Source: Alphaproteobacteria bacterium (lineage in GTDB: Bacteria; Pseudomonadota; Alphaproteobacteria; CAWBKL01). From it: a stretch of DNA of 34,395 nucleotides. Each line of letters begins with the position of its first letter. The stretch's first letter is position 1. This document shows positions 2,824 through 21,823 of the stretch, in pieces. Location of the stretch: contig JBAQHC010000431.1 of the NCBI GenBank assembly GCA_049288095.1, positions 1-34,395 on the forward strand, in the 5' to 3' direction. The notes under the pieces were generated by a model. The model had not been told where the DNA came from, did no database searches, and saw only the letters and a program-made list of their open reading frames with translations. The position numbers and the translations under genes are program-made.

Positions 2824-4383
2824 ATGGCCGAAAACAGCGGAGATCAAAGCGCCGTCTTCTCCTTTCTCGGCGATCCCGTAACTCACGGGCTTTCGGAGCC
2901 GGTCAAACGCATCACGACGCATGGCGCCGCCGTCTTCCTGGCCGGAGGCGATGCCTACAAAGTGAAGCGGGCGGTGCACTATCCCTATATGGACTTCTCA
3001 ACCCTCGAGAAGCGCAAGGCCGCATGCGAGAACGAGATTGTGATCAATCGCGAGAACGCGCCCAAGCTTTATCTCGGGGTCGTTGCGATCACCAAGGATG
3101 CCGCCGGCCTTCACCTTGGCTGGCCGGGAGAGGTCGTTGAGTGGGCGGTTCATCTTCGCCGCTTTGATGAAGACGCAACGCTCGACCTGGTGGTTGCGCA
3201 CGGCGGCACACTCGATCCTCAATTGATCGCATCGCTCGCGCAAAGAGTTGAAGCCATGCATCGGCGCGCGCCTGTTCGCGACGGCGCGGCGGGGACGCGC
3301 GCGCTCCGTGCGGCGCTGGATGAGACGCTTGGCGAGTTACGAGAAAGCTCGGAATTTGTTGCTCCCGCCCTCGTCGAGTGGCTCGTGGAGCACATGACGC
3401 ACGACTTCAATCGCCTGGAGCCGCTGCTTCTCTTCCGTGGCAATCGCGGGCGCGTGCGCCGGTGCCACGGCGATTTGCATCTTCGCAACATTGTGCTCAT
3501 CGATGGCGAGCCCGTGATCTTCGATGCGCTCGAATTCGACGATGCGCTCGCAACCACCGATACGCTTTATGACCTTGGCTTCCTGCTCATGGATCTCTGC
3601 GAGCACGGTTTGATCGCCGAGGCCAATCAGCTGCTCAATCATTATCTCTGGTGCTGCGAAGACGAAAAAGGCGAGATCGAAGGCCTCGCTCTCATGCCCT
3701 TGTTTCTCGCCTTGCGAGCGCTCATCCGCGCAAAAGTGACGATCACGCAGATACGCCAAACGCCGCAAGATGCAGCGGAGCGCGCGCAAGGGCAATCGGC
3801 GATCAATTCTTATCTTAACGCCGCACGATCATTTCTCGATCCCGAGCCTGCCCGCGTTATTGCGATTGGCGGCCTCTCCGGCACTGGCAAGACGACGCTT
3901 GCTGCGGCGATCGCTCCCGAGATCGGCACGGCGCCGGGCGCAGTTCATCTGCGCAGCGATATCGAGCGCAAGCGCATGTTCGGCGTCGATCCAAGCACGC
4001 ATCTCAGCCGCGAGGCCTATGATGCCTCGGTCTCAAAGCGCGTTTACCAAACCCTGAGCGACTATGCGGCCACCACGCTCGGCGTGGGACGAAGCGTCAT
4101 TGTCGATGCCACATTTCGCTCAGCACATGAGCGGGAGGCGATTGCTACAGTGGCCAAAGAGCACCCCTTCACTGGAATTTGGCTGGAGGCGCCGCGCGCT
4201 GTCTTGCTTGCCCGCGTGGCGGCGCGGCAGCGCGACGCATCCGACGCGACCGCGCCCGTCGTTACCGTCCAATTGAGCGAAGAACCCGGGCAAATTTCCT
4301 GGACCCGGCTTGATGCTTCTCAATCGATTGAAAAGCTTAAAGCGGCAGTGTTGCAATTGATCGCCCGGCACCACACCTCATAG
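2824..4383 (+). CDS. Bifunctional aminoglycoside-phosphotransferase-like / P-loop ATP-binding protein
   Basis: 519-aa ORF. The N-terminal half has the kinase-like catalytic loop 'CHGDLHLRNIVL' and 'FDALEFDD'. The C-terminal half has the Walker A motif 'GGLSGTGKTTLA' (AAA_33/zeta-like kinase fold). Purine-rich GGGGAGG/GAGG lies upstream of the ATG. Confidence 0.85.
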   Translation: MAENSGDQSAVFSFLGDPVTHGLSEPVKRITTHGAAVFLAGGDAYKVKRAVHYPYMDFSTLEKRKAACENEIVINRENAPKLYLGVVAITKDAAGLHLGWPGEVVEWAVHLRRFDEDATLDLVVAHGGTLDPQLIASLAQRVEAMHRRAPVRDGAAGTRALRAALDETLGELRESSEFVAPALVEWLVEHMTHDFNRLEPLLLFRGNRGRVRRCHGDLHLRNIVLIDGEPVIFDALEFDDALATTDTLYDLGFLLMDLCEHGLIAEANQLLNHYLWCCEDEKGEIEGLALMPLFLALRALIRAKVTITQIRQTPQDAAERAQGQSAINSYLNAARSFLDPEPARVIAIGGLSGTGKTTLAAAIAPEIGTAPGAVHLRSDIERKRMFGVDPSTHLSREAYDASVSKRVYQTLSDYAATTLGVGRSVIVDATFRSAHEREAIATVAKEHPFTGIWLEAPRAVLLARVAARQRDASDATAPVVTVQLSEEPGQISWTRLDASQSIEKLKAAVLQLIARHHTS

Positions 4384-6895: not shown

Positions 6896-7429
6896 GAGTC
6901 CTCTACATCTCTTGTTCTTGCGCCCGGCTTAGCCTTGGGTCCGCGAGGACTAATTCACGACTTCGGAATAAGATCCACGCGCTGGCGAGTTTAAGCCGCA
7001 ATTTTTTCGCGGCGAAGCAACAAATAAAATCCAGAAATCATCTGTAGATTGGCGTACCGGCGACGAGGCGCCATTTTCACGCGCGCAGAGTCATGGAACT
7101 CGGTCAGGTCCGTCGCGCCATTGCTACGGAGTCGCCGTCGCGTTGCGCGCCATCATATTCGAGATAAGAAAGCGAAACAAGAAACCGGATCGAGGAAGCT
7201 ACCGGCCGACGGCGCGGCCAATGTATGCCGTAGGATTGATCGGGTGATCACCTGCGGGTATGCCCGCGACTTGGCCAGTATTTCCCAGTACGCGCTACCA
7301 GGATGAACGCGCTGCCAGTGAGCCGCGCGATTGTGGCCCCGTATTTATGGTTTCTTATGGGCCTTCACCAAACATAAGCAGCGACACTCGCTGGCAACAT
7401 GCTCTGTCTCGCGAGGACTCGAGCCAATC

Positions 7430-9037
7430 ATGACCCCTACGCATCTCTTGCGCTTTCTCGACCATCATTCGCTCTTGACGTTCGGAGTCGCAGCGAGCCT
7501 CATCGCCGCCGTCACCCTAATCATGATTGGCCGGAAATTGCTCACGCGTATTCGGCGCGCCGAAACGGAGCTTGAACAACTACGCAATCGCATAGGTGCA
7601 ATCTATGCGGCTGTGCCATTCGGCATCTGCGCGATTGAGGATGACAAGCGCATCGTATCAAACGAAAAGTTCAACACTTTATTGCGGCCGCTGATGAAGA
7701 CGGTTTCGTCGAATCAAACCTCCGCACGCACCAAACCGGGCGAACCTGATGCAGGCGACTTGGCTGTGATCAACTATCTGAGACACGAGGACCACGATCG
7801 CGTCGTCAACTTGGATGGCGAAAACTCGATCCTTATCCGGTCAATCCGCGTTCCCGGTTCTAGATACAGGGTTGCGACAGTGGCAAATGTCACTGAGCGC
7901 ATGCGCCTGCAGACGGAATCCGCAGAAGCGAAGGCCAAGGCGGAGCTTGCATCGCTCGTGAATACGGAGTTCAGCGCGAGAATGAGCCGCGAGATCCGGA
8001 CGGCGGTCAGCGGCATCGTTGGCATGGTCGATCTCGCATGTGATGATGGCATCAGCGAGCGGCAAGCAGGCTACCTGCAGAGAATTCATGAATCCGCGTA
8101 TTCCATTCTCGAAGTTGTCGATGACTTGCTGGGCCTATCAAGAGTTGGAACCGCCAACCCGCAGGCCGCCGCTCCGTCCATAGCCATTTCCGCGCATGGT
8201 GCGAGCCCCCCGCCCCCACACACTGAACGGAACACTGAGCGCATCCTTGTCGCCGAGGACAACCCCATAAATCGAGAAGTCATCGAGGGGCAGCTGGCAA
8301 AGCTCGGCTACGAATGCGAGGTGACCGGCGGCGGAGAGCAGGCATTCGAACGCTGGCTGAGTGGCCGTTTCGCGCTCTTGCTCACAGATTGCGAAATGCC
8401 TGGTGTCAGTGGATTTGAGCTCGCCCGGCGCATCAGAGCCGAGGAACTAGCCAAAGGCCTACCGCGAACACCAATAGTTGCGATTACCGCTAACGTTATG
8501 CCAAGTGACAGAGAGCGTTGCCGATCATCTGGAATGGACGATTATCTGGCAAAGCCGTTCTCACTCGGACAGTTGAGAAAAGTCATCGACGCGCGGCTCG
8601 GGCGTGCAATAAGCAGTGCTGCTAGCCAGGAGCACGCCGAAGAAGTTACATCAACGGCGCAATTAAACGAGGGTCAACCGGAGGATAGGCACGCATCGCC
8701 CGCGGTGCTGGATCTCAGTCTCTTGCGCGAGATCTACCCAGATAACGAGTCGAGGATTGGGCAACTGATCGCTCGCTTCTTGGCGATCGCCGACGAAATA
8801 GCCGGCGACATCGATAGGCTGGCCGATCAGCGCAATGGCGATGAGCTAGCTGACGCAAGCCATAAACTTAAATCGTCGGCTCTCACAAGCGGCGCATTTG
8901 CGCTCGCCGAGGTTTGCGGCACCCTGGAAGAGGCTGGCCGGGACTTGGACTGGCTGACAATTTCCGTTGCGCGACATCAGCTGGGCCCAGAACTCGAGCG
9001 GGTTCGCAGAGCAATTGGTGCGTCAGCCGGTAGTTGA
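7430..9037 (+). CDS. Membrane-anchored PAS-DHp(degenerate)-receiver-Hpt phosphorelay protein lacking an ATPase (HATPase_c) domain
   Basis: ORF 7331..9037 opens with TTG. I prefer the ATG at 7430 (MTPTHLL...), which has GAGGA 12 nt upstream. Domains read by eye, in order. TM segment 'LLTFGVAASLIAAVTLIMIG'. PAS-like 'AVPFGICAIEDDKRIVSNEKFNTLL...VANVTERMRLQ'. HisKA-like helix 'FSARMSREIRTAVSGIVGMVDL', with Arg where the phospho-His normally sits. No N/G1/G2 boxes. Receiver 'ILVAEDNPINRE...LLLTDCEMPGVSG...VAITAN...YLAKPF'. C-terminal Hpt 'ASHKLKSSALTSGAFALAEVCGTLEEAG'. Confidence 0.8.
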   Translation: MTPTHLLRFLDHHSLLTFGVAASLIAAVTLIMIGRKLLTRIRRAETELEQLRNRIGAIYAAVPFGICAIEDDKRIVSNEKFNTLLRPLMKTVSSNQTSARTKPGEPDAGDLAVINYLRHEDHDRVVNLDGENSILIRSIRVPGSRYRVATVANVTERMRLQTESAEAKAKAELASLVNTEFSARMSREIRTAVSGIVGMVDLACDDGISERQAGYLQRIHESAYSILEVVDDLLGLSRVGTANPQAAAPSIAISAHGASPPPPHTERNTERILVAEDNPINREVIEGQLAKLGYECEVTGGGEQAFERWLSGRFALLLTDCEMPGVSGFELARRIRAEELAKGLPRTPIVAITANVMPSDRERCRSSGMDDYLAKPFSLGQLRKVIDARLGRAISSAASQEHAEEVTSTAQLNEGQPEDRHASPAVLDLSLLREIYPDNESRIGQLIARFLAIADEIAGDIDRLADQRNGDELADASHKLKSSALTSGAFALAEVCGTLEEAGRDLDWLTISVARHQLGPELERVRRAIGASAGS

Positions 9038-10308
9038 TCGGAATTGAATTCGTCCTTGAACAGATCAACCATCTCCTGGGCGAAGGCATGACGCGGTGTT
9101 GCCACGGCCGGCCGGATGGCCGCCCCCTCGAGATAACGAAACCCCGTTCCGAGCAGCGCTATCACGAGACTTCTTGTCGATAGCCCAAATGCGAATGATG
9201 GAATGTTCTTGGCATCTGCAGCAATGCAGAATTCGCGGGCTCTGGAGACGATACTGCGCTCATCAATCGTCCCATTAGGGATGGAAAAGCCCACACATGC
9301 CGTCTTCGTGTTTACGAAACGCTCCACACCAACGTCGCCGCAGCCGATACACGCATAGATCGCGCGACTATATTGCGAGAGCTTTGGAAATTCCTGAGCG
9401 ATGCGAATATTTGGCAGACCGGAATCGAGCCCGTGAACACATGCAATCAGATCCTGTGAGACCTCGCTGTGTAGGGAATTGAGAGCGGCCTTGAATGGTA
9501 TCCAGGCCTTCGATCTCGCTATCGTCGACCAGTGAACGGGAAAGACGATGAGGACCCTGCGATTTTGACTCCTGAGTTCGCGCACCTTCTGCGCGCAGTC
9601 CTCGAGAATTCTGAGATCAATCTCGACTTGCTCTTCGGTTTCCTCAGCAACCGGAAATTGCGAACCGCTTGGTTCGGCAGCGCGTAGATGGGGCCTGCAG
9701 AGATACGTGACAACGACCCGCCTGAACGTATCCCAGACGGGACTATATTTGAATTCCACGTCCGATAGGTCCGCGACGACCGCAGCACCAAGCGGATCGA
9801 TCAAGCGAATTGATCGACGCTTGTCCTGCTTCGGCGATGAATCCGCTGTTTCGGCCACCTCACCGTCACGATCGAATATCGTCTCAACACCCTTGGCCTC
9901 AAGCATTGTATCCAGAGTGGCCTCAACATTCACGTCTTCGCTCAAAATCGAGCCGTCCGCGTTGCATGTCACCGTTCTCACGCGCACGATGTCTTCATCT
10001 TCGCCGAAGAGCTTTCGGCAAACGCCCTGAGCGATCTTTGCGCATATCAGAGATGACTCGTTGATATCGCGGTCCTTGAAGAGCACGACGTAGGCAAGCT
10101 CGTCTATTTGAAAATAGACATCACCGTCTCCGAGCTCATTTGTAATTGCTCGCTCTACCGTTATCGAGATGTGGGAACGCGATTTCTCCCATCTGTCGCC
10201 TAACTTCTCGCGTATGCGCGAAAGGCCGATCATCTGGAGTTTGCCTGCGGCAACGGTCGGATTGCTCCCCAGCAGCGCCGTGATCTTCTCTGTGAGCGGC
10301 TGCGCCAT
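8977..10308 (-). CDS. Hypothetical protein with degenerate GGDEF-like N-terminal and degenerate EAL-like C-terminal domains (inferred)
   Basis: 443-aa ORF starting 3 nt after the stop of the upstream receiver gene. The N-terminal segment 'LQMIGLSRIREKLGDRWEK...DVYFQIDELAYVVLF' follows the GGDEF-fold pattern but lacks GG(D/E)EF. The C-terminal segments are 'YSPVWDTFRRVVVTYLCRP', 'VFPVHWSTI', 'DLIACVHG', 'IYACIGCGD', 'SFAFGLSTRS' and 'GFRYLEGAAIRP'. They line up with the EAL-domain blocks YQPIxxLxxGxxxGxEALxR, sVNls, ElTE, alDDFG, AEGVEt and GxxxxQGxxxxxP, with every catalytic residue replaced. The CDS call is solid; the domain call is by eye only. Confidence 0.7.
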   Translation of the reverse strand: MAQPLTEKITALLGSNPTVAAGKLQMIGLSRIREKLGDRWEKSRSHISITVERAITNELGDGDVYFQIDELAYVVLFKDRDINESSLICAKIAQGVCRKLFGEDEDIVRVRTVTCNADGSILSEDVNVEATLDTMLEAKGVETIFDRDGEVAETADSSPKQDKRRSIRLIDPLGAAVVADLSDVEFKYSPVWDTFRRVVVTYLCRPHLRAAEPSGSQFPVAEETEEQVEIDLRILEDCAQKVRELRSQNRRVLIVFPVHWSTIARSKAWIPFKAALNSLHSEVSQDLIACVHGLDSGLPNIRIAQEFPKLSQYSRAIYACIGCGDVGVERFVNTKTACVGFSIPNGTIDERSIVSRAREFCIAADAKNIPSFAFGLSTRSLVIALLGTGFRYLEGAAIRPAVATPRHAFAQEMVDLFKDEFNSDQLPADAPIALRTRSSSGPS

Positions 10309-10311
10309 CGG

Positions 10312-10752
10312 CTATTTCGACTTCCAGCTCGCTTCGGTCGAGGAGACTGAGCGCCCCCACAAAAGCTGCGCGGCATGATCAAGCAGGGTTGCCGGCTTAA
10401 TCGGCTTCTTGAGCACGACGTTCGCGCCGAAGCGATCGGCAATGACGAGGAAATCCTCAATCTGTTTCCTGCCGCCGCCGCTGATCGCGATAACCTTCAT
10501 ATCCGGGTATTTGCGCTTCACTTGGATAAGAGTTTCGAGTCCCTCTTTTTCCGGCATGATGATGTCGAGGATGATGAGGTCTGGCGTCCGTAACGAAATC
10601 TCTGCCAGGGCAAAGTTGCCGTTCTCTGCAACGGAAACAGTGCATCCTATCCGCTCGAACAGCTCCTTCGTCAGAGTACGAACAAGTTCGTCATCGTCGA
10701 CGACGAGCACGTGCTTGAGGATCGAACGTTTAGTCACGTCGGTCGTTTCCAT
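10312..10752 (-). CDS. Single-domain response regulator (CheY-like receiver)
   Basis: 146 aa. Motifs 'VLVVDDDE', phospho-acceptor 'LIILDIIMPEKEG', 'VIAISGGG' and 'VVLKKP' show that all canonical receiver residues are present. Confidence 0.9.
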   Translation of the reverse strand: METTDVTKRSILKHVLVVDDDELVRTLTKELFERIGCTVSVAENGNFALAEISLRTPDLIILDIIMPEKEGLETLIQVKRKYPDMKVIAISGGGRKQIEDFLVIADRFGANVVLKKPIKPATLLDHAAQLLWGRSVSSTEASWKSK

Positions 10753-11056: not shown

Positions 11057-11449
11057 CTATCTCTTTCGCACCCCTCCAGGGGAGCGCAATTCGTCCAGAT
11101 AATGAGACAACTGGTCGATACCATAAGGTTTCACAAGAACCAGAATGTTTAAGCCATCCCCTTCGGTCGCAATGTCCTCGGCGTTCTTGTCGCCGGTTAG
11201 AACGACAATGGGTATGCCCTGAAAGCTATAGGGACTCTCAGAGATAGTTCGAAGCAAGACGCGCCCGCTCATTTGCGGCATATAAACATCGGTGATCAAG
11301 ATGTCCGGCCGTAACTCCTGAAGACCGGCCAGTGCGTCGAATGCCTTCTGATACACGATTGGCGTAAAGCCTCCCCTGCGGCAGACATCCGACAGAATCT
11401 CTGCGGTAACTGGGTGGTCCTCGACGATTACAGCGACTAGTTCTTTCAC
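11057..11449 (-). CDS. Single-domain response regulator (CheY-like receiver), divergent from the chemosensory operon
   Basis: 130 aa. Motifs 'VAVIVEDHP', 'ILITDVYMPQMSG', 'IVVLTGD' and 'LVLVKPYG' show an intact receiver signature. Confidence 0.9.
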   Translation of the reverse strand: MKELVAVIVEDHPVTAEILSDVCRRGGFTPIVYQKAFDALAGLQELRPDILITDVYMPQMSGRVLLRTISESPYSFQGIPIVVLTGDKNAEDIATEGDGLNILVLVKPYGIDQLSHYLDELRSPGGVRKR

Positions 11450-11742
11450 CTGCCGGACTCGATCTCAGTTCAGTGCGCCAGCGTTCAAGCTAGCGTCAGC
11501 AAGCTAACGCAGCGTTGAACCCTGCTGCGATCAGTAGAAGACCTTAGAGCTATCGCCTCAAGAAGCTGACATTCGTTGCGCGTAATTTGCGCCGAAGAAC
11601 GATTTTGCGACAGAGTTCCAGAGATTGTGCTGATGGGAACTCGCACTTTTCGGAAAATTTACGCTCCTCCTTTACAGGCTAACCTACCTGCTCGTTGCGT
11701 AATCCCGAGACTCCATCCGCGTCATCGAGTGGCAGAGCGCAA

Positions 11743-12261
11743 ATGGCAATCAGCACTGCACAAACGGGAACTGAGTTCGCGTTGGGGCCGGGGTTATCGC
11801 CGGGTCACGCGCCCGCAATGGCCATGCCATGGTTGATGTTCCGTACTGCCGGGCACGTTGCCGCTCTTCCAATTTCACACGTGGTTGAGACGCTGCGGGC
11901 CTTGCCTATCGAATCTGTGAGCGGTGCACCGCCTCATGTGATCGGCCTCTCGATTATCAGAGGCGCACCAACCGCAATCGTCGACACGGCATTGCTGTTT
12001 GGGCGCGAGCCGACCAAACATCAGCGCACCGTAGTGGTTCGTGTGGGTGAGCGCACGATAGGGCTGGCGGCCGAGGAAATCCTCGGCGCCCGTGCCATTG
12101 GCAGCGAGGCACTGGAGCGGTTGCCGTCGCTCTTCGGAAATGTCGAATCGGTTAGCGCGGTCACAATTCGTGATGAAATGCTCGTGTTTGTCTTGGAGGC
12201 GGCGCGCATCATCTCGGATGAGTTGCTCGCAAGCCTCCTCACTCAGGGTACGCGAGCATGA
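11743..12261 (+). CDS. cheW: CheW-like coupling protein
   Basis: ORF 11695..12261 opens with TTG. The ATG at 11743 is chosen, but 11818 (MAMPWLMF...) is also possible, so the start is uncertain. CheW-domain pattern: 'WLMFRTAGHVAALPISHVVETLRALPIESVSGAPPHVIGLSIIRGAPTAIVD...GLAAEEILG'. Its stop overlaps the next start (ATGA at 12258..12261). Confidence 0.85.
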   Translation: MAISTAQTGTEFALGPGLSPGHAPAMAMPWLMFRTAGHVAALPISHVVETLRALPIESVSGAPPHVIGLSIIRGAPTAIVDTALLFGREPTKHQRTVVVRVGERTIGLAAEEILGARAIGSEALERLPSLFGNVESVSAVTIRDEMLVFVLEAARIISDELLASLLTQGTRA

Positions 12262-13763
12262 TCGCGCAAGCGCCCGAGGATCAAGCAGAGCGGTTCCGTG
12301 GCGTCATCGCCGATCGAGTTGGCCTGCGCTTTGAGAACAATAAGCTCGGAATGCTCGCAGAGATATTGCACCGGCGATCAAAGGCGCTCAATTGCAATGC
12401 CGACGTTTATCTTTGGCAATTGGAGCATGACCCACCAAGGAACGAATGGGGCGCGCTTGCGAGCGAGCTGACCGTCGGCGAGACATATTTCTTCCGCAAC
12501 TCCGAGCAGTTTGCGGCGCTCGCCGAAGTCGTTCTGCCGGAGCGCATGCGCATTCGCGCGGGCAAGCCCTTGCGCCTTCTCTCGGCCGGTTGCTCTTCGG
12601 GTGAAGAAGCCTATTCCCTGGCCATTATCGCGCGCGAAACGCTCGACAACGTATCAAGTGCCGTCGAGATTCTCGCAGGCGACCTCAACCCCGCTGTCTT
12701 GCGGCGGGCCGAGCGTGCCCATTATTCCTCTTGGGCACTGCGCGAAACGCCGCCTGAGATGCGCGCCAGATGGTTTCGCCGCGACGGCAATGAGATGGTG
12801 CTCGACGACTCCATCCGCTGCGCGGTCAAGTTCGAAACCGTAAATCTCGCCGACGATGATGCGTATATCTGGCAACCCGGCGCTTATGATGTCGTTTTTT
12901 GCCGCAATGTGCTCATGTATTTCGAGCCCGAGCAGATGCGAGCTGCCATTGCGCGCATAGCGCATTCGCTCGCGGCGGGCGGTTTTCTCTTCCTGGGGCA
13001 TGCGGAGACGCTTCGCGGCATCTCCGACCGCTTCAACATCGTCAACACGCACGAGACTTTTTATTATCGGCTGAAGGAGGCCGACGAGCCCGCGCAAGAG
13101 CGAGTCGTTAGGCTGGTACCGCGCCGTCCGATACAACATCCGCCATCGCCAATCGCCGACACATCCTGGTTTGATCAAATCAAACGCGCGAGCGAACGCG
13201 TGGCCCAGCTTGTCCCGCTCGCAGAGACGACGGAGGCGACGCCTGAGCAAGCGCCCGCGCTGTTCGATCCCAGCTCCGTGCTCGAGCTTATGCGCAAGGA
13301 GCGATATGCCGATGCGCTAAGCGTCGTGCGCGAAGGCGTGCCATCGAGTGCCCTCAACCCCCAATCCATATTGATCGAAGCGATCCTCTTGACGCATGGC
13401 GGTCAGCTCGCCGCAGCAGAAGCTCTCGCCATGCGCCTCCTTGCGATCGATAGTCAGAATGCAGCTGCGCACTATGTGCTTGCGCTTTGCAGCGAGCATG
13501 CAGGCCTCGCCGAGCGCGCCGTGGAGCATCATCGCACAGCGGCGCGGATCGACCCGAGCTTTGCGATGCCGCGACTGCATCTTGGCCTTCTCACGCGCCG
13601 CGCTGGCGAGCGGCAGTTGGCGCGTGATGAGTTTGCGAAAGCACTGTTCCTGCTGGCGCGCGAAGACGCGCAGCGCCTCATTCTCTTTGGCGGCGGGTTT
13701 AATCGCGACGCGCTAATGGCCCTTTGCAGCTCCGCGCTTGCGGAATGCGAGGCTCGCTCATGA
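12258..13763 (+). CDS. cheR: CheR-type protein-glutamate O-methyltransferase with C-terminal TPR region
   Basis: 501 aa. It has 'ETYFFRN' and the SAM-binding 'LRLLSAGCSSGEEAYSLAI' and 'YDVVFCRNVLMYF'. The C-terminal ~170 aa is helical and TPR-like ('AAHYVLALCSEHAGLAERAVEHHRTAARIDPSF'), as in WspC-type CheRs. Confidence 0.9.
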   Translation: MIAQAPEDQAERFRGVIADRVGLRFENNKLGMLAEILHRRSKALNCNADVYLWQLEHDPPRNEWGALASELTVGETYFFRNSEQFAALAEVVLPERMRIRAGKPLRLLSAGCSSGEEAYSLAIIARETLDNVSSAVEILAGDLNPAVLRRAERAHYSSWALRETPPEMRARWFRRDGNEMVLDDSIRCAVKFETVNLADDDAYIWQPGAYDVVFCRNVLMYFEPEQMRAAIARIAHSLAAGGFLFLGHAETLRGISDRFNIVNTHETFYYRLKEADEPAQERVVRLVPRRPIQHPPSPIADTSWFDQIKRASERVAQLVPLAETTEATPEQAPALFDPSSVLELMRKERYADALSVVREGVPSSALNPQSILIEAILLTHGGQLAAAEALAMRLLAIDSQNAAAHYVLALCSEHAGLAERAVEHHRTAARIDPSFAMPRLHLGLLTRRAGERQLARDEFAKALFLLAREDAQRLILFGGGFNRDALMALCSSALAECEARS

Positions 13764-14263
13764 GCACGCCGGCGACGAAATTGTTACCGAGAGCGCTGGA
13801 GTTGCGCCGCGAATTTGATCGCAGCTTCGCGCTTGCCCCAAGTGCCGGCGAGACGGCAAGGATCGAGCTCCTTGCCATCAGCGTTGCCGCAAATCAATTC
13901 GCGCTGAGACTTTCGGACGTTGCCGGCATTTATGCCGACAAGCGAATTACGCGTGTGCCTGGCGCAGCGCCGTCAATGCTCGGCATCGCCGGCTTTCGAG
14001 GCTCGATTGCGCCGATATACGATCTCGCTCGCCTCATGGGTCAGCCGCAAAGTCACGCGCCGCGTTGGCTGGTCGTCGCGCGGGCAGCCCCAATCGCCAT
14101 TGCCTTCGACGGCTTCGACGGCCAGCTGCGCCTCACTGCAGACGCAATCAAACCGCAGCAGTCGCGCGATGCACATGACTACACAAAAGAGTTCGCTCAG
14201 ACCGAAGGCGGCCTCCGGCCGATCATCGATCTGCAGATGGTAATTGAGACAATCAAGGCTTGA
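13760..14263 (+). CDS. cheW: CheW-like coupling protein (second copy)
   Basis: ORF 13724..14263. The ATG at 13760 forms an ATGA overlap with the cheR stop (13760..13763). CheW-domain pattern: '[54 protein letters not shown]'. Confidence 0.85.
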
Positions 14264-14298
14264 GGAAGAGCCCACAACGCTCAGTAGGGAGCAAGTCG

Positions 14299-15771
14299 AT
14301 GTTTGGAAATATCACCGTTGGCAAGAGACTCGTATTGGGCTTCGGCGCGGCGGCGTTGACGCTTCTCGCCATTGCGTTCGCTTCTTATCTCAGCATCACC
14401 AAGTCGATCGAAAACGACTCTATGGTTCGGCACACTTATGAGGTTCGCGACAAGATCCAGGATGTCGTCACCGGCCTCCTTAGTGGCGAAACAGGCGTTC
14501 GAGGTTTTGTGATCACCGGCGACGACAGCTATCTCGAACCATATAACGCTGCGCTGAGCGATGTTCCGGCAGCGATCGATAGCCTTCGCAAGCTCACTGT
14601 AGACAATCCTCACCAAGGGCAGCGCTGGGATACCCTCGCACCTTTGCTCGATACTAAATGGGACCAGCTTCGCCAACGCGTCGATGCACGGCGCACCGAG
14701 GGTTTTGACGGTGCCCAGAAGCTTGTGCTCACGAATACGTCCAAGGCGACCATGAACCGGATTCGGTCGATTCTGAAGGATGCCGACGATGAGGAGGCAA
14801 ACCTTCTTTCACGTCGTTTGGAAGCATCAACCTCAAGCGCGCACTTCACGCTTTCGTTCATGATGTGGGGCGGCCTTTTCGGCACCTTAATTGTCGCCAC
14901 GATTGGCTGGCTCATCGCCCGCTCTCTCGCAGCGCAAATAGGCACGGCCGTCGGCCAGGTGAACGGGTCATCGACCGAATTGCAGGCCGCAGCCAATCAA
15001 CAAGCCTCCGGCGCCAAGGAGCAAGCCGCGGCGATGACGGAGATCAGCACAACGATCAGCGAGCTCTTGGCGACATCGCGCCAGATCGCCGAAAGCGCAC
15101 AGCGCGTCGCGCGCAATTCCGAGCAGACGGCAAATGCAGCACGCTCCGGCCATAGCACAGTCGATCTTACTCACGACTCAATTTCCGGCATCAAGCGCCA
15201 GGTCGATCAAATCGTTTCGCACATGCTCGATCTTGGCCGGAAGTCGCAGGAAATCGGTTCGGTGCTCGACATTGTTTCGGAGCTCGCCGAGCAGACCAAT
15301 ATTCTTGCGATCAATGCCACCATCGAGGCGGCAGGGGCTGGCGAATCCGGCAAGCGCTTCGCGGTCGTTGCAGAAGAGATCCGTAAGCTCGCCGATCGCG
15401 TCGGCGACTCGACGAAGGAGGTGCGCACCCTGATCGAGGATGTGCGCAGCGCCGTGAACACAACAGTCATGGCTACAGAGACAGGCTCAAAAGCAGTCGA
15501 CGCCGGAACACGCCAATTCGGCGATGTCGCAACCGCCTTCAAGCAAATCGCCACGCTCGTGACGACAACGACGGATGCTGCGCGCGAGATCGAGCTCTCG
15601 ACCAAGCAGCAATCAACGGCCGTCGAGCAAGTGAACGTTGCGATCGCCAATGTGACGCAGGCTTCGGTCGAGACGGAAACCAGCGCCGGTCAGACGCTGC
15701 AAACCGTGTCTCAGATGGCAACGCTCGCTAAGGATCTTCTGAAGATCATTCAGCCGAAACGCGCCGCGTAA
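14299..15771 (+). CDS. Methyl-accepting chemotaxis protein with periplasmic CHASE3 sensor domain
   Basis: The ATG at 14299 has AGGGA 8 nt upstream. TM1 is '[17 protein letters not shown]'. The CHASE3 signature is '[43 protein letters not shown]'. TM2 is '[20 protein letters not shown]'. The MCP hairpin tip reads '[38 protein letters not shown]'. Confidence 0.9.
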
Positions 15772-15774
15772 CAT

Positions 15775-17820
15775 ATGGCCGCCGACCCTTACAGATATTT
15801 CAGGCCCGAAGCCGGCGAGATTATCGAGCAATTCTCGCGCGGCATGCTCGATCTCGAAAAGGGCGGCGACGGTGCGTCAACTCTACAGCGCCTATTGCGG
15901 CTCGCACATACGCTCAAGGGCGCCGCTCGCATCGTCAAGCAAGCCGAAATCGCCTCGCACGCGCATGCGATTGAAGACATCTTGTCGCCGTTGCGCGCCA
16001 CGCCGGAGAGAGTTGGCCGGGGCGAGATTGATGCGGTTCTTGAACATATCGATGCCGTTGGCGCGCAACTGCGCACACTGAGCGCTCCGCTTCAATCCGG
16101 CCAAACGCCGACAAAGAGTGAGGCAGAAGAGCCCGCGCCGCGAACCATTCGCGCCGATCTTGCCGAAACCGACGCCATGCTCGACAGCCTGATCGAAACC
16201 CGCGCGCTCATGAGCGGCGTGCGCACCGCCGCCGACGAAATCAATGGAGCGAACACCGCCATCGAGCTGCTTGTGCACCTTCTTGGCTCGCTGCCGCCGG
16301 AAATTCGAAACGGGCGCCCCTCGCTGCAAAGCCCCATCGCCATCGCCGAGGAGCTCAAGCGGAAGTTCGACTCGATCGCGCGAGCGCTTGATTCCAGCCT
16401 GGACCGAATGGACCGCGAGCTGCGTCAACTGCGGGAGCGTGCGGAGCGGCTACGCCTCATGCCAGCGGCCGATTTGTTCATTGCACTCGAGCGAACTGCA
16501 CGCGACACGGCGCGCGCGGTCGGCAAACAAATCACGTTCACTGCCAATGGCGACGATGTGCGGCTCGATGCACATATTCTCGAAACACTTCAACGCGCGC
16601 TCATCCAGATTGTTCGAAATGCCGTTGCGCATGGAATTGAGATGCCCGCCGACCGGAGAGCCGCGGGAAAGCCCGCGTCCGGCTCGGTCTCGATCACGAT
16701 TGCGCGGCGCGGCCGGCAAATTACTTTCCGGTGCCGCGATGATGGCCGGGGCCTTGATCTTGAGCGTGTGCGCGCATCGGCACTACAGCGCGGACTTGTA
16801 GGAGCCGACGGCAAAGAGCTGGGCTCGGGGGAGCTGATGAGACTCCTGCTCCGCGGGGGGATCAGCACATCTGCCACCGTAACGGAGGAGGCAGGGCGAG
16901 GGATCGGGCTTGATATCGTGCGTGAAGGGATCGAACGCCTTGGCGGCAGTGTCGAGTGTCAGAGCACGCCCGGCTTGGGCACGACTTTCGAGCTCATCAT
17001 CCCGCCATCACTGACCTCGCTGGAGGCGCTTCTGGTCGATGCGGGCGCAGAGGGCAGCGTTATGGCAATTCCCCTCGCCGCGGTGCGTGCGACGTGTCGC
17101 TCTGCGTCGTCTGGCATTTCAGTCACAGCATCGGGCGCTTCGATTCTGTATGATGAAGCTGCAATCCCGTTCTTGCCGCTCGCAACTGCACTGGACGATG
17201 CTTCGTGGCCAAGAACGAAGAGTTGGGCAACCGTTATTATCGGCGGCTCTGAAGGCGCTGCGGCCATTGGAGTCGAGCGTCTGCTCGGTACTGCCAACAT
17301 CGTCATCCGGCCGCTGCCGCAGCATATGCACGCAAGCCCCATCATCGCTGCGGCCTCGCTTGACGCCGACGGCAATCCGCAACTCGTGCTCGATGCGGAA
17401 AGACTCATTGAAGCCGCGCGCAACGGCTCCGGAACTCTCGACAAGAAGGCTCCGAAAGTAGCTGTGCTCGTCGTTGACGACTCTTTGACGACGCGCATGT
17501 TGGAGCAGGGCATTCTTGAGGCCGCCGGCTTTGAGGTTGAAACCGCGGTTTCGGGCGAAGAAGGAATCGAGCGTTTACGCAACCACAACTTCGCGGTGAT
17601 CCTCGTGGATGTCGAGATGCCGGGGATGGACGGCTTCACCTTCATTGAGCGGATCAAGTCGAACCCGGCGACGCGGAATATTCCTGCGATCCTTGTGACA
17701 TCGCTCAATGAACCATCGCATCGCGAACGCGGCCGCGCCGTGGGCGCGCACGGCTACATCGTGAAGAGCGAATTCAATCAAGCGGAGCTGCTCGCGATGA
17801 TCCGGCCTTTGGTGGCGTAG
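15775..17820 (+). CDS. cheA: CheA-type histidine kinase with fused C-terminal receiver (CheA-REC hybrid, WspE/CheA3-like)
   Basis: 681 aa. The P1 Hpt is 'LLRLAHTLKGAARIV'. Kinase boxes are 'IVRNAVAHGIE', 'RDDGRGLD' and 'GRGIGLDIV'. A P5 CheW-like region follows. The receiver reads 'VLVVDDSLTTRM...ILVDVEMPGMDG...ILVTS...YIVKSEF'. It starts 3 nt after the MCP stop. Confidence 0.92.
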   Translation: MAADPYRYFRPEAGEIIEQFSRGMLDLEKGGDGASTLQRLLRLAHTLKGAARIVKQAEIASHAHAIEDILSPLRATPERVGRGEIDAVLEHIDAVGAQLRTLSAPLQSGQTPTKSEAEEPAPRTIRADLAETDAMLDSLIETRALMSGVRTAADEINGANTAIELLVHLLGSLPPEIRNGRPSLQSPIAIAEELKRKFDSIARALDSSLDRMDRELRQLRERAERLRLMPAADLFIALERTARDTARAVGKQITFTANGDDVRLDAHILETLQRALIQIVRNAVAHGIEMPADRRAAGKPASGSVSITIARRGRQITFRCRDDGRGLDLERVRASALQRGLVGADGKELGSGELMRLLLRGGISTSATVTEEAGRGIGLDIVREGIERLGGSVECQSTPGLGTTFELIIPPSLTSLEALLVDAGAEGSVMAIPLAAVRATCRSASSGISVTASGASILYDEAAIPFLPLATALDDASWPRTKSWATVIIGGSEGAAAIGVERLLGTANIVIRPLPQHMHASPIIAAASLDADGNPQLVLDAERLIEAARNGSGTLDKKAPKVAVLVVDDSLTTRMLEQGILEAAGFEVETAVSGEEGIERLRNHNFAVILVDVEMPGMDGFTFIERIKSNPATRNIPAILVTSLNEPSHRERGRAVGAHGYIVKSEFNQAELLAMIRPLVA

Positions 17821-17822
17821 CC

Positions 17823-18896
17823 ATGGCAAAACTTCGTGTCCTTGTTGCCGATGACTCAGAGACCGTGCGCAAGCGCATCGTCGAATCATTGGCCGCCGAT
17901 CCTGGAATTGAAGTCGTTGGCGAGGCCGAGGATGGGCAGCGCGTGATCGAGCTCTGCCTGCGCACGAGCCCCGACGTGATCACGATGGACATGATGATGC
18001 CAATCATGACCGGCGTGGCAGCAACCGAATACATCATGGCGCATCAGCCGACGCCGATCTTGATTGTGTCCTCTTCCTTCAATCGCGGGGAATTGTTCAA
18101 GATCTATGATGCGCTTGCGGCAGGCGCCGTCGATGTCTTGGAAAAGCCGACGGGCGAAGAGGCCGAGGGCGACTGGGAAGGCCGGCTGATTGCGGCGGTC
18201 AAGCTCGTCTCGCGGATTAAGGTGATTACCCATCCGCGCGCGCGCCTGGGCCTTGAGCGTTCGCGCCGGTTGGAAGGCGCAGTCCCTGACCGCGGACGTG
18301 CCGCTGTGGGCCAGCTCGAAGTTGCGGCAATCGGCGCATCGACCGGAGGCCCCGGCGCAATCGTCGAAGTGCTGCGCAAGTTGCCGCCGAGCTTTCAAGT
18401 TCCGATTCTCATCGTGTTGCACATGAACGAGCCGTTTGGCGCAGCTTTCATCGATTGGCTGGATGCGCAAATCAATCGGCCGGTCAGCGCCGCGCAAGAT
18501 GGCGCGCGCGTTGAATCAGCTAAGGGCCGTGTGCTGGTGGCACCATGTGGCAAGCACCTCGTCATTCGCGACCGCACGGCATTTCTCACACTCGGCCCTG
18601 AGCGGCATTCTTGCCGGCCGTCAGTCGACACGCTCTTTGAATCAATCGCACCGGAATACGGCCCGGCCGCAGCGGCATGCCTGTTGACCGGCATGGGCAA
18701 AGACGGCGCGCTTGGCCTCTTACGAATTCGCGAGGCCGGCGGCATTACCATTGCGCAAGACGAAGCCTCATCTGTCGTTTACGGCATGCCGCGAGAGGCA
18801 GTGCTTCTGGGTGCCGCGCTACAAATCTTGCCGATCGGTGAAATCGGGCCGCGCCTTGCGGCCTTGCAAACCGCTCGGATGGAGGCCCTTGCATGA
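17823..18896 (+). CDS. cheB: Protein-glutamate methylesterase/deamidase CheB (REC + methylesterase)
   Basis: 357 aa. The receiver is 'VLVADDSETVRK...VITMDMMMPIMTG'. The esterase catalytic blocks are 'AIGASTGGP', 'IVLHMNEPF' and 'LTGMGKDG'. Confidence 0.93.
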   Translation: MAKLRVLVADDSETVRKRIVESLAADPGIEVVGEAEDGQRVIELCLRTSPDVITMDMMMPIMTGVAATEYIMAHQPTPILIVSSSFNRGELFKIYDALAAGAVDVLEKPTGEEAEGDWEGRLIAAVKLVSRIKVITHPRARLGLERSRRLEGAVPDRGRAAVGQLEVAAIGASTGGPGAIVEVLRKLPPSFQVPILIVLHMNEPFGAAFIDWLDAQINRPVSAAQDGARVESAKGRVLVAPCGKHLVIRDRTAFLTLGPERHSCRPSVDTLFESIAPEYGPAAAACLLTGMGKDGALGLLRIREAGGITIAQDEASSVVYGMPREAVLLGAALQILPIGEIGPRLAALQTARMEALA

Positions 18897-21823
18897 GCGG
18901 CACAGCCCTCATCGTTGACGACAGCTTGACCGTGCGCATGAATTTGGTCGAGCTGCTAAGTGACGCCGGTATTCAATGCGTTGCCTGTTCGACGTTGGCG
19001 GAGGCGAGGCGCGCCGTTGCCGAGTTCAGTTTCGCGCTCATCATCCTCGATATTCTTCTGCCCGACGGTGACGGCATCGAGCTGCTCAGAGAAATTCGCG
19101 CCAATCCGCTGACGAGCAAGACGAATGTCATGTTGCTCTCGACGGAGGCTGAGATCCGCGATCGTGTGCGCGGGCTGTCGACCGGTGCCGATGAGTATGT
19201 CGGCAAGCCCTATGATCCAAGCTATCTCATGGCGCGCGCGCGGCAACTCGTGCGCCAAGCGACGGCCGAAGGCCGGGAGACGCGTGAAACTATTCTCCTG
19301 ATCGATGACAGCGTTACTTTTCGGGAGGCGCTCAAGAGCGCGTTGGAACAAGCCTCCTATCATGTTGTCGTCGCCGGCACGGGAGAGGAAGGCCTTAAAC
19401 TCGCGGCGGACATCACGCCCTCGGCGATCGTTGTCGATGGCGAGCTGCCCGGAATCGATGGACCGACCGTGATTAGGCGAATTCGCCTTGATGCTGCCCT
19501 GCGCGAAATGCCTTGTTTCCTCCTTACGGGCTCAGAGGATCGCGAAGCCGAAGTACGCGCGCTTGAAGCCGGCGCCGATGCGTTCGCGCGCAAGGAAGAC
19601 AATCCGAGCGTGATCATTGCACGGATCGCGGCGATGCTGCGCGCTTCCAGAGAACAATCTATGCGCGCCGATACACGCAGCCTCCAAGGACCGAAGAAGG
19701 TGCTGGCAGTCGATGACAGCGAAACCTATCTGCAGACGCTTGCAGAGGCTCTGCGCACGAACGGCTATGAAGTGATCCTGGCCCGGTCGGGCGAGCAAGC
19801 TTTGGAGCTCCTTACGGTCGAGACCGTCGATTGCATTTTGCTCGATCTTCTGATGCCGGGCATTGGAGGGCGCGAAACCTGCCACCGCATCAAAAACGCG
19901 CCGGCCATCAGAGACATCCCGGTCATCATGCTGACTGCCGTCGAGGACCGCGAGGCGATGATTAGCGGCCTCGGCGCCGGCGCCGACGATTATATCTCCA
20001 AGTCGAGCGACCTTGAAGTCGTGCGCGCGCGCGTGCTCGCTCAGATCCGCCGCAAGCGTTTCGAGGACGAGCACCGGATCAGCCGTGAGCAGCAACGCGT
20101 GGCGCTGCAGATTCAACTGGAGCGCCTCAATCTCTTGAGCGAGATCACACGCGCGATAGCCGCACGACACGATCTAACCAGCATCTATCAAGTTGCGCTT
20201 GGCAACTTGGAAGAGCAGCTGCCAGTCGACTTCGCTGGTGTGTTCGTGCTCGATGAAGCAAGCAATGTCTTCTCCGTCATCGTCGGACCAAGAAGTCGCG
20301 AGATAACCATCAACTTCGCTCTACCCGGGCGCGCTTCGCTGTTCTTTGCCAAGGAAGATGTCGAACGCGCCGTCGGAACGCGCCAGATCTACGAGCCCGA
20401 CATCCAAGAGATCGAATCGACTCTCTCTCAGCTTCTTGCAAAGAACGGCCTTCGATCCCTCGTCATAACCCCGCTCCTTTCAAGCGGGACCGTGTTTGCT
20501 TTTCTGGTTGCCGCACGAGCGGCGATCGATGCTTTTAGCGGCATGGACTGCGACTTTCTCCAGCAGCTGAGCGAGCACATCAGCCTCGCGGTGATCCAGG
20601 CTAAGCTTCACCGGAATCTTCAGGATGCCTACGACGATTTACGGCAAAGCCAGCATGCGGTGATGCAGCAAGAACGTCTCCGGGTAATCGGTCAGATGGC
20701 GAGTGGCATCGCACACGACATCAACAATGCGATGACTCCGCTTGCCGTGATGACGCAACGCTTGCTTGAATCCCAACACGATCTGCGCCCCGAACTCACC
20801 AAGTATTTGAACGTCGCAAAGCTCGTGACGGACGATGTCAGCGCTACCGTTGCGCGGATGCGCGAGTTCTATCGCGAGCGCGAGCCTCAAGTGGCGTTTG
20901 TGCCGGTCAGCTTGAACACTTTGATCGATCAGGTTGTGGAGCTGACGCGCGCGAGATGGAGCGATATGGCCCAGCGCGCGGGCATAGTCATAGAGGTGAA
21001 GCGCGAGCTCACCCCTGATCTGCCGGCAATAATGGGAATTGAGAGCGAGATCCGGGAAGTTCTGACAAACCTGATTTTCAATGCTGTGGACGCAATGCCG
21101 CGCGGCGGCACCCTGACGCTACGCACTCGGTGCACGGAGCTGAAAGACCCCGGCCCGGGCGAGCGCGTGATGCTTGAAGTCGCAGATACCGGAATAGGAA
21201 TGGACGAGACAACGAGGCGCCGCTGCACCGAACCCTTCTTTACGACGAAAGGCGAGCGCGGCACGGGGCTTGGCCTCGCCATGGTTCACGGTGTCGCCAA
21301 GCGGCATGACGCCAATCTCGAAATCGATAGCGCCCAAGGAAAAGGCACGACCTTCCGTCTCGACTTTGCGGTGGCCGGAACACAGGAGGAAGGGGCTAAT
21401 TCGGCCTCCGCCCTTGAGACCAATACGGCTCCACCGATGAATGTGCTGCTGGTTGATGATGATCCCATCATTCTTGAAGTCATGCAGTCGACCTTGGAAG
21501 CGGACGGGCACAAGGTCGTCGCCGCCAATGGCGGACGAGAGGGCGTGACGGCATTCGCGGATGCGCTCGACAGACACGAGCCGATCAATGTTGTTATCAC
21601 CGATCTCGGCATGCCCAACATGAACGGGCTCGAAGTGGCGAAGGCGGTTAAGACGCTGCGAAGCGGAACCCCGATTATCCTTCTGTCAGGCTGGGGCCGC
21701 AAAATGGATGCTGAGCACGACAGCTTAGGCCAGGTCGACTTCACTCTCGCCAAGCCGCCGAAACTTCCGGACCTCAGAGCGGCAATGGTTGCGTGCTCAA
21801 AGCTTCAGGGAAGGCTTCGCTAG
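18893..21823 (+). CDS. Multi-receiver hybrid histidine kinase: REC-REC-REC-GAF-like-HisKA-HATPase_c-REC
   Basis: 976 aa, with an ATGA overlap with the cheB stop (18893..18896). REC1: 'LIVDDS...IILDILLPDGDG...MLLSTE...YVGKPYD'. REC2: 'LLIDDS...IVVDGELPGIDG...FLLTGS...FARKED'. REC3: 'LAVDDS...ILLDLLMPGIGG...IMLTAV...YISKSSD'. A GAF-like region follows ('LSEITRAIAARHDLTSIYQVALGNLEEQLPVDFAGVFVLDE'). The H-box is 'MASGIAHDINNAMTPL'. The N/G boxes are 'LTNLIFNAVDAM', 'ADTGIGMD' and 'GTGLGLAMV'. REC4: 'LLVDDDP...VITDLGMPNMNG...ILLSGWG...LAKPPK'. Confidence 0.9.
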   Translation: MSGTALIVDDSLTVRMNLVELLSDAGIQCVACSTLAEARRAVAEFSFALIILDILLPDGDGIELLREIRANPLTSKTNVMLLSTEAEIRDRVRGLSTGADEYVGKPYDPSYLMARARQLVRQATAEGRETRETILLIDDSVTFREALKSALEQASYHVVVAGTGEEGLKLAADITPSAIVVDGELPGIDGPTVIRRIRLDAALREMPCFLLTGSEDREAEVRALEAGADAFARKEDNPSVIIARIAAMLRASREQSMRADTRSLQGPKKVLAVDDSETYLQTLAEALRTNGYEVILARSGEQALELLTVETVDCILLDLLMPGIGGRETCHRIKNAPAIRDIPVIMLTAVEDREAMISGLGAGADDYISKSSDLEVVRARVLAQIRRKRFEDEHRISREQQRVALQIQLERLNLLSEITRAIAARHDLTSIYQVALGNLEEQLPVDFAGVFVLDEASNVFSVIVGPRSREITINFALPGRASLFFAKEDVERAVGTRQIYEPDIQEIESTLSQLLAKNGLRSLVITPLLSSGTVFAFLVAARAAIDAFSGMDCDFLQQLSEHISLAVIQAKLHRNLQDAYDDLRQSQHAVMQQERLRVIGQMASGIAHDINNAMTPLAVMTQRLLESQHDLRPELTKYLNVAKLVTDDVSATVARMREFYREREPQVAFVPVSLNTLIDQVVELTRARWSDMAQRAGIVIEVKRELTPDLPAIMGIESEIREVLTNLIFNAVDAMPRGGTLTLRTRCTELKDPGPGERVMLEVADTGIGMDETTRRRCTEPFFTTKGERGTGLGLAMVHGVAKRHDANLEIDSAQGKGTTFRLDFAVAGTQEEGANSASALETNTAPPMNVLLVDDDPIILEVMQSTLEADGHKVVAANGGREGVTAFADALDRHEPINVVITDLGMPNMNGLEVAKAVKTLRSGTPIILLSGWGRKMDAEHDSLGQVDFTLAKPPKLPDLRAAMVACSKLQGRLR

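Follow-up and report, generated by a model that had tools for sequence, protein, structure and literature searches.

Introduction

RcsD is a membrane-bound protein that resembles a histidine kinase (HK); its histidine phosphotransfer (Hpt) domain relays phosphate from RcsC, and its N-terminal PAS-like/HK-like part provides regulatory contacts (PMC7418988). In Yersinia pestis, an RcsD product consisting of the Hpt domain only is produced (PMC10191623). The protein studied here, which among the described systems we judge by analogy to be closest to RcsD in function, is encoded at positions 7430 to 9037 of contig JBAQHC010000431.1 from an Alphaproteobacteria bacterium (assembly GCA_049288095.1). 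The whole GenBank contig of 34,395 nucleotides (nt) was analyzed and is called the window in the following. The product of 535 amino acids (aa) is identical to P0001, "MAG: response regulator [Alphaproteobacteria bacterium]" (MAG, metagenome-assembled genome). It is built like a hybrid kinase, lacks the catalytic and ATP-binding (CA) domain, carries Arg at the position of the phospho-accepting His in its dimerization and histidine phosphotransfer (DHp) domain, and retains an intact receiver (REC) and an intact Hpt domain. Comparison with related loci confirmed, at the level of sequence, that this form has been conserved, goes back to a full kinase and is maintained by selection.

HptB of Pseudomonas aeruginosa is a single Hpt protein that serves receiver-ended hybrid kinases and hands the phosphate to a downstream receiver protein. 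RcsD is not known to have a functional receiver; RetS possesses a periplasmic sensor and is not known to have an Hpt domain. RetS cannot autophosphorylate, owing to its degenerate HATPase, and signals via its DHp domain (PMC5992135); it nonetheless inhibits GacS by three mechanisms (PMC5992135, PMC8498467). DivL of Caulobacter, in which the phospho-His is replaced by Tyr, and PsmA of Streptomyces, in which this position is variable, are kept for non-kinase roles (PMC4211667, PMC12963549), and DivL senses a phosphorylated receiver through its DHp/CA core (PMC4211667). HisKA proteins without a CA domain were noted in a census, in Archaeoglobus (PMC1183210), and a CA-less ChrS arose by laboratory evolution (PMC9491836). 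In a limited literature search, no description of a naturally conserved protein composed of a DHp without His, a REC and an Hpt domain was found.

Domain Architecture and Loss of the Kinase Features

A preliminary description, made from the sequence alone, had read the protein as a transmembrane (TM) helix followed by PAS, DHp, REC and Hpt domains, and Pfam, AlphaFold and phmmer bear out this layout in all structural particulars. In the 535-aa product, Pfam matches HisKA (residues 179-240, E 7e-12), Response_reg (272-386, E 4e-24) and Hpt (445-526, E 5e-9). Neither HATPase_c nor any further Pfam family is matched even at E<=10, and this profile scan, with HisKA found and HATPase_c absent, corroborates the missing ATPase domain of the earlier reading. 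The gap between the HisKA and Response_reg matches amounts to 31 residues. No space for a CA domain is left between DHp and REC, since the DHp ends at residue ~242 and REC starts at residue 271. The NCBIfam models of TorS, BarA, RcsC and ArcB match in two separate stretches, all of them far below their cut-offs.

The AlphaFold model has an overall predicted local distance difference test (pLDDT) score of 82 and displays a PAS-like fold of five strands at residues 64-153. Only ~14 residues precede the TM helix. The domain that follows is not matched by a PAS family of Pfam; phmmer alignments run continuously, from query position ~29 to ~242, over the PAS_7/PAS_4 and HisKA domains of other kinases. 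Among solved structures, the best relatives of the DHp are those of GacS (7z8n, 7n0e) and RetS (6dk7, 6dk8). Besides the tether between DHp and REC, the model reveals a second disordered linker at residues ~393-421. The open reading frame (ORF) as such spans 7331..9037. We take the ATG at 7430 as the probable start, as this Met is kept in the orthologue of locus L083 (see the following section) and homology begins there; the TTG-started extension from 7331 is not conserved in L083.

The DHp helix contains the two substitutions that set the protein apart from its homologues. In an alignment of 64 sequences, comprising 63 hybrid-kinase homologues, column 187 is nearly invariant His and column 192 nearly invariant Pro, and the 535-aa protein shows Arg and Ala, respectively. 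The H-box residues S186, E188, R190, T191 and G198 are retained. A global MAFFT alignment with full-length relatives misplaced the N-terminus of the protein onto their CA domains, whereas the 64-sequence alignment placed the H-box correctly. Among the fetched proteins, 296 HisKA domains cover the residue-187 column: 294 carry His at the phospho-accepting position, Arg occurs in two (the 535-aa protein and P0170) and Tyr in one. Codon and alignment together thus confirm that the Arg lies exactly at the phospho-His position, as had been claimed. P0170 (1493 aa, from the representative search) is an unrelated tandem kinase with two HisKA-HATPase cores, the first H-box of which reads ARMSREIRTP and the CA domain of which is retained. 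Given the Arg in this H-box, the His-to-Arg substitution therefore recurs independently.

In contrast to the DHp, the two phosphotransfer domains were described as intact, and the alignment reveals all residues concerned. The REC active site comprises E276/D277 as acidic pocket, D320, T353 and K375, and the Hpt phospho-site His478 (CAT, 8861-8863) is kept in HKLKSS. The catalytic residues of both domains are intact in the 535-aa protein and in the L083 orthologue alike. Because the CA domain and the phospho-His are both lost, the protein is predicted to be unable to autophosphorylate; the corresponding conclusion of the preliminary description held, in this predictive sense.

Syntenic Relatives and Descent from a Complete Kinase

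Since the protein database contains no close relative of the 535-aa protein over its full length, syntenic loci were anchored on the convergent gene 8977..10308, which encodes a 443-aa protein. The closest locus, L083, stems from an independent ENA metagenome assembly, and its 443-aa neighbor is 89% identical. The L083 orthologue is complete, with 535 codons and the same Pfam set, again without HATPase_c, and its DHp helix RMSREIRTAVSGIVGM is identical, including the MSREIRTA box. Over the full length, both proteins share 68% aa identity and 74% DNA identity, i.e., 26% of the nucleotides differ. The synonymous divergence (dS) of 0.77 is on par with that of the two neighboring genes (0.77 and 0.83).

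The L083 orthologue uses the same CGC codon for the Arg, while nearby synonymous sites differ. Both the Arg and the loss of the CA domain are shared at a dS of ~0.77, and this orthologue alignment settles a reservation of the preliminary description: a sequencing error or a recent mutation at position 7989 is ruled out by the same codon in L083. More generally, an assembly artefact, a sequencing error or a very recent mutation as origin of this form is excluded by the comparison, because the independent L083 orthologue shares the architecture and the Arg codon at dS 0.77. A split kinase was considered as well. The CA segment was sought elsewhere in the window, where matches were confined to the CA domains of the three other kinases, at a generic 30-35%, so that this candidate was rejected.

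More distant loci point to the ancestral state. At L085, where the 443-aa neighbor is 53% identical, the gene at the corresponding position, truncated by the contig end, still encodes a full HATPase_c (E 3e-31) including its N, G1, F and G2 boxes; the end of DHp helix 2 precedes it, and an intervening domain (~150 aa), REC and Hpt follow. The same intervening domain precedes REC-Hpt in P0002 of locus L081 (neighbor 54% identical). The nearest database matches of the 535-aa protein are PAS_7-HisKA-HATPase_c-REC-Hpt kinases. The ancestor was a complete GacS/BarA-type unorthodox hybrid kinase, because the syntenic L085 gene retains the CA domain, L081 retains the intervening domain, and the nearest matches are full kinases. 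By this comparison, a segment of ~295 aa, reaching from the end of DHp helix 2 through the end of the intervening domain and comprising the CA and intervening domains, was lost in frame in the lineage of the window. Relative to L085 and P0002, the deletion junction falls at residues ~233-245, and the DHp-REC tether occupies the site of the CA and intervening domains of these relatives.

A third state is found at L084 (neighbor 60% identical), where the same position holds an ORF of 207 codons with an Hpt domain only. The N-terminal 100 codons of this ORF (L084:2029-2652, minus strand) have no clear homology, and an internal Met may be the true start. The locus family consequently exists as full kinase, as DHp-REC-Hpt and as Hpt alone, and Hpt is the sole domain that all syntenic relatives retain. 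The branching order of L084 and the CA-less clade cannot be read from pairwise identities, so that the Hpt-only form may or may not have passed through a CA-less intermediate.

Searches beyond these loci added no further members of the CA-less form. The N-terminal 270 aa alone gave zero matches at E<=1e-3 in the word-indexed database, and an exhaustive representative search with the N-terminal part revealed only the protein itself above generic HisKA matches. Because these searches returned only self and generic HisKA, the sensor part is without close family members beyond its 50% cluster. A scan of GTDB genomes with the whole protein retrieved only generic hybrid kinases of <=40% identity, and the 443-aa neighbor was present in none of the 80 loci. 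A metagenome scan with the 443-aa neighbor yielded one short contig, L082, which ends before the side on which the 535-aa protein would lie.

Selection on the Individual Domains

The ratio of non-synonymous to synonymous divergence (omega) was estimated by the Nei-Gojobori method between the window and L083; since this is a single pair with short segments, the direction of the differences is robust and the exact values are not. The DHp core (residues 184-237) has an omega of 0.063, followed by 0.095 for Hpt, 0.18 for the HisKA domain as a whole, 0.21 for REC and 0.32 for the TM region. The PAS-like region (0.60), whose constraint is relaxed, and the DHp-REC tether (0.65) are at the upper end. 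For comparison, the 443-aa neighbor and the 146-aa receiver encoded next to it reveal 0.069 and 0.064, respectively, and the value for Hpt is near these two at the same dS.

No stretch of the protein is more constrained than the DHp core, with 93% identity and 14 synonymous versus 4 non-synonymous codon differences. In the PAS-like region, 15 synonymous differences stand against 48 non-synonymous ones, which separates this region from the DHp core by Fisher's test (p = 5e-5). This pattern clearly indicates that the dead DHp, the Hpt domain and, less strongly, REC are maintained by selection.

Comparison with Described Systems

Likeness to RcsD is twofold: RcsD, described as a phosphotransfer protein and not as a kinase, combines a membrane-anchored HK-like module that has no phospho-His with a C-terminal Hpt that carries its His, and the 535-aa protein has both, with the Arg187 DHp and H478. 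The Hpt-only RcsD product of Y. pestis parallels the L084 ORF (PMC10191623). However, RcsD has an HATPase, an ABL domain and a large periplasmic loop (PMC7418988), whereas the 535-aa protein has neither a CA remnant nor a periplasmic domain, and its REC stands at the place of ABL. Moreover, there is no orthology between the two.

The predicted lack of autophosphorylation and a possible signaling via DHp connect the protein to RetS, with which it shares the DHp sequence type and, in a motif whose His and H+5 Pro are replaced, the retained Thr at H+4. RetS differs in keeping the His, a degenerate CA domain and receivers, while the 535-aa protein has lost His and CA, has an Hpt domain, and has no related partner kinase in the window. 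With the tripartite kinases GacS, BarA, TorS and ArcB it shares common descent as well as intact REC and Hpt domains, but it fails two of their defining features, the phospho-His and HATPase_c.

The HisKA domain with its His replaced, shared with the L083 orthologue at dS 0.77, recalls DivL and PsmA. Both of these keep a CA-like domain and neither has an Hpt domain, whereas here the CA domain is gone and Hpt is present. Finally, the connector logic proposed below resembles that of HptB, and the L084 ORF actually is an Hpt on its own. In contrast to HptB, the 535-aa protein still joins its Hpt to a receiver and a dead DHp as well as to a PAS-like domain and a membrane anchor.

Genomic Neighborhood

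The features of the protein and its surroundings are compiled in Table 1. The convergent 443-aa gene overlaps the 3' end of the gene of interest over the same length in L083 as in the window. Its product gave no Pfam match in the window; weak EAL matches were obtained for 5 of 8 members of its family. In the AlphaFold model (pLDDT 78), the top Foldseek matches are GGDEF-EAL dual domains, with LapD, a degenerate receptor for c-di-GMP (3pjw), as the best (E 7e-15). The family is rare, with 10 database matches, and is syntenic in L081, L083, L084 and L085.

Table 1. Positions of the features of the 535-aa protein and of neighboring genes in the window
Feature	Position	Strand	Basis and remarks
Complete coding sequence of the predicted kinase-dead hybrid-kinase derivative	7430..9037	+	535 aa; ATG 7430, stop 9035-9037; ORF list
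Single N-terminal membrane-anchor helix, residues ~15-35, no periplasmic sensor domain	7472..7534	+	Hydrophobic LLTFGVAASLIAAVTLIMIG, then RKLLTRIRR; AlphaFold helix from residue 16
Diverged PAS-like domain, residues ~62-153	7613..7888	+	AlphaFold: five strands and helices, pLDDT 65-90
HisKA/DHp domain, GacS/RetS type, without phospho-His	7964..8149	+	Pfam, residues 179-240; model helices 155-205 and 210-242
Arg187 codon CGC, column of the phospho-accepting His	7988..7990	+	ATG AGC CGC GAG ATC CGG ACG = MSREIRT
Ala192 codon GCG, in place of the nearly invariant H+5 Pro	8003..8005	+	H+4 Thr191 (8000-8002) retained
Disordered Pro/Ala-rich tether, residues 243-270 (28 residues)	8156..8239	+	pLDDT <50; 41% identity to the L083 orthologue
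Receiver (REC), residues 271-389 in the model	8240..8596	+	Pfam; pLDDT >95; invariant columns in the homologue alignment
Hpt four-helix bundle, residues 430-533 in the model	8717..9028	+	Pfam E 5e-9; AlphaFold
Predicted degenerate GGDEF-EAL protein, 443 aa, annotated as hypothetical, convergent	8977..10308	-	3' end overlaps the 3' end of 7430..9037 by 61 nt
Single-domain receiver, 146 aa, in the same transcription unit as the GGDEF-EAL-like gene	10312..10752	-	Pfam; active-site residues present
Second single-domain receiver, 130 aa, CheY3-like by position	11057..11449	-	Pfam; active-site residues present; kept in L082
Che3-like, non-chemotaxis chemosensory cluster: CheW, CheR, CheW, CHASE3-MCP (methyl-accepting chemotaxis protein), CheA-REC (15775-17820), CheB, hybrid kinase	11695..21823	+	Pfam

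The 146-aa receiver is kept upstream of the 443-aa gene in L082, L083, L084 and L085 and also in L088, a distant locus with a PilZ gene in the vicinity. With this receiver and the GGDEF-EAL-like protein, the 535-aa protein forms a conserved triad beside the Che-like cluster. In L086 (9736-9936) and L087 (132-332), which contain relatives of the 443-aa protein at 35% identity, an ORF of 66 codons replaces the upstream receiver gene. This ORF matches the 146-aa receiver over just 22 residues, in the C-terminal part of the latter, and may represent further domain erosion in the locus family.

The layout of the Che3-like cluster in the window resembles that of the Rhodospirillum centenum Che3 cluster, which controls cyst formation and in which phosphate passes between CheA3 and CheS3, two hybrid kinases (PMC3868531). 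The kinase 18893-21823 (976 aa) is unusual and is composed of several REC domains (four receiver stretches by Pfam), GAF, HisKA and HATPase, the last REC being C-terminal. Both this kinase and CheA-REC terminate with a REC, and neither has an Hpt downstream; among the ORFs scanned in the window, Hpt domains occur only as CheA P1 and in the 535-aa protein. The link to Che genes persists in L084 in a different gene order. There, a CheW homologue (L084:2815-3096, plus strand) is located next to the Hpt-only gene, and the Che genes lie on the opposite side of the locus as compared with the window.

Upstream of the gene of interest, 534 nt (6896..7429) separate it from a divergent gene, and this interval contains no convincing ORF, Rfam match or match to a promoter consensus. 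Along this line, Rfam and promoter/terminator scans around the gene gave nothing relevant. The only Rfam or ARAGORN match in the window is a tRNA-Arg with anticodon ACG (22801..22877, minus strand). An ORF of 519 aa (2824..4383, plus strand) fuses an aminoglycoside-phosphotransferase-like (APH) region to a C-terminal AAA_33/zeta-toxin-like P-loop kinase, an unusual fusion that is unrelated to the 535-aa protein.

A Candidate Phosphotransfer Connector and Its Alternatives

At evenly balanced confidence, we favor the reading that the protein may be a kinase-dead, RcsD/HptB-like phosphotransfer connector adjacent to the Che3-like cluster. Phosphoryl groups from other kinases would reach H478 of its Hpt domain, either via D320 of the REC in the same protein or straight from the receivers at the ends of the donors. 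The two REC-terminated kinases of the cluster, CheA-REC and 18893..21823, are candidate phosphodonors, because they are REC-ended and have no downstream Hpt. From Hpt, the phosphate would pass to the neighboring receiver 10312..10752 as candidate acceptor, and this 146-aa receiver may control the paired LapD-like degenerate GGDEF-EAL protein 8977..10308. The His-less DHp would be kept for dimerization and for the docking of a receiver or a partner kinase, and would thereby govern the flux through the protein, which could also be reversed. In this model, we infer which kinases donate and which receiver accepts the phosphate, in which direction it flows and what the DHp contributes.

The strongest argument for such a connector is, as far as the loci can tell, that Hpt persists in every relative, and alone in L084. 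The suggestion of the preliminary description that the protein could be a REC-Hpt shuttle fed by another kinase gained support from the presence of Hpt in all syntenic relatives and from strong purifying selection, its function as such being predicted from sequence.

Several observations weigh against a connector. A DHp is dispensable for a mere relay, and the relay model is incomplete in that no part of the protein is as constrained as the DHp core. Likewise, the internal REC is unexplained if Hpt alone suffices, as in L084. Donors and acceptors were assigned solely by gene neighborhood within the window. For the protein as a whole, the non-synonymous divergence (dN) is ~4 times that of the neighboring genes, which points to partial relaxation. 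Of the CA-less form, only two sequences are known, both of them metagenomic, and in L085 and L081 contig ends cut off the H-box of the corresponding genes, so that either order of His loss and CA loss is conceivable.

Because a relay alone leaves the strong constraint on the DHp unexplained, the DHp probably does something beyond it. Given the residues that are left, such a role must require neither ATP nor His; dimerization combined with receiver docking, or docking of a kinase, would be the options. The roles discussed in the following, RetS-like modulation and phosphatase activity, are compatible with the relay.

First, the His-less DHp could heteromerize with a GacS/BarA-type kinase encoded elsewhere and block its autophosphorylation, as RetS does, with REC and Hpt in a secondary role, e.g., siphoning off phosphate. 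We consider this rather improbable. The DHp core, being the most conserved segment (omega 0.063), and the solved structures of GacS (7z8n, 7n0e) and RetS (6dk7/6dk8) as its best relatives speak for such a role. Precedents are given by RetS itself, which with its degenerate HATPase inhibits GacS (PMC5992135, PMC8498467), and by the laboratory-evolved CA-less ChrS, which heterodimerizes with HrrS (PMC9491836). Nevertheless, Hpt and REC are under purifying selection as well, with intact active sites; L084 retains Hpt only, which centers the function of the locus on Hpt; and synteny is conserved with the pair of receiver and GGDEF-EAL protein rather than with a kinase. The partners that the preliminary description had proposed for a heterodimer, the kinases 18893..21823 and 29487..31034, do not fit: BLASTP of the DHp against both of them and against CheA, i.e., within the window, gave no match. 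These two were rejected as partners for want of detectable DHp similarity, whereas the DHp constraint and the GacS/RetS type lend some weight to DHp heterodimerization as such.

Second, the protein may be a phosphatase or phosphate sink, a reading to which we assign similarly little weight. The DHp would dock a phosphorylated receiver and dephosphorylate it via Thr191 of the ExxT motif, draining the pathway like phosphatases of the CheZ/CheX type. Its substrate would be either the neighboring single-domain receivers or the REC of the protein itself, which would receive phosphate in reverse from a response regulator through Hpt. Zhu et al. are said to have found in 2000 that the EnvZ DHp alone has phosphatase activity, which would count in favor of this role. 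The 535-aa protein has no CA domain, however, and in many kinases CA-bound nucleotide stimulates the phosphatase activity; besides, a phosphatase role of the Che type is unreadable from sequence. E188 and T191 are present in both orthologues, the helix RMSREIRTAVSGIVGM is wholly identical between them, and REC is tethered to the DHp via the 28-residue disordered linker. In HisKA proteins, the Thr/Asn at H+4 is needed only for phosphatase activity, for which the His is helpful but not required (PMC3510030), and RetS employs T428 of its HExxT motif for transmitter-phosphatase activity toward the GacS receiver (PMC5992135). On the other hand, H187R and P192A affect positions at which Ala substitutions lowered the activity of CrdS, with H371A reducing it and P376A causing a large decrease (Willett and Kirby 2012; PMC3510030).

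Third, the His-less, CA-less DHp itself could be the working part of the protein. It would then dock receivers autonomously, acting either as a constitutive transmitter phosphatase or, in the manner of DivL, as a sensor of their phosphorylation state, and would be fused to a reversible REC-Hpt. This idea, too, we regard as speculative and on the unlikely side.

That the gene is a functionless, decaying relic, a pseudogene in the making, or the product of an assembly artefact that removed the CA segment is very improbable and already largely refuted: domain loss does recur in the locus family (Hpt alone in L084), the PAS-like region and linkers are near neutral (omega 0.6-0.65), the overall dN is four times that of the neighbors, and the sequence is MAG-derived, but two independent assemblies that differ in 26% of their nucleotides show the same in-frame architecture with intact frames of 535 codons, at dS 0.77 the DHp core has an omega of 0.06, Hpt one of 0.10 and REC one of 0.21, and the catalytic residues of REC and Hpt are all present.

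Implications

Histidine kinases that are kinase-dead, RcsD, RetS, DivL and PsmA among them, are more and more viewed as regulators and not as junk, and the characterized examples all keep a CA-like fold. The 535-aa protein represents a natural case in which the CA domain is wholly gone, the phospho-His is replaced, and the DHp is the most strongly conserved part. The practical reach of this finding is limited, as the lineage is rare and uncultured, two sequences are known, and pseudo-kinases are an accepted concept already. If the DHp is indeed the working part, the protein would stand for a "DHp-only" signaling class that couples a Che3-like pathway to an output resembling a receptor for cyclic di-GMP (c-di-GMP). 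The syntenic series of full kinase, DHp-REC-Hpt and Hpt alone provides a picture of how stand-alone connectors may evolve from hybrid kinases, and under the same premise these three syntenic forms would capture the stepwise origin of RcsD- or HptB-type connectors.

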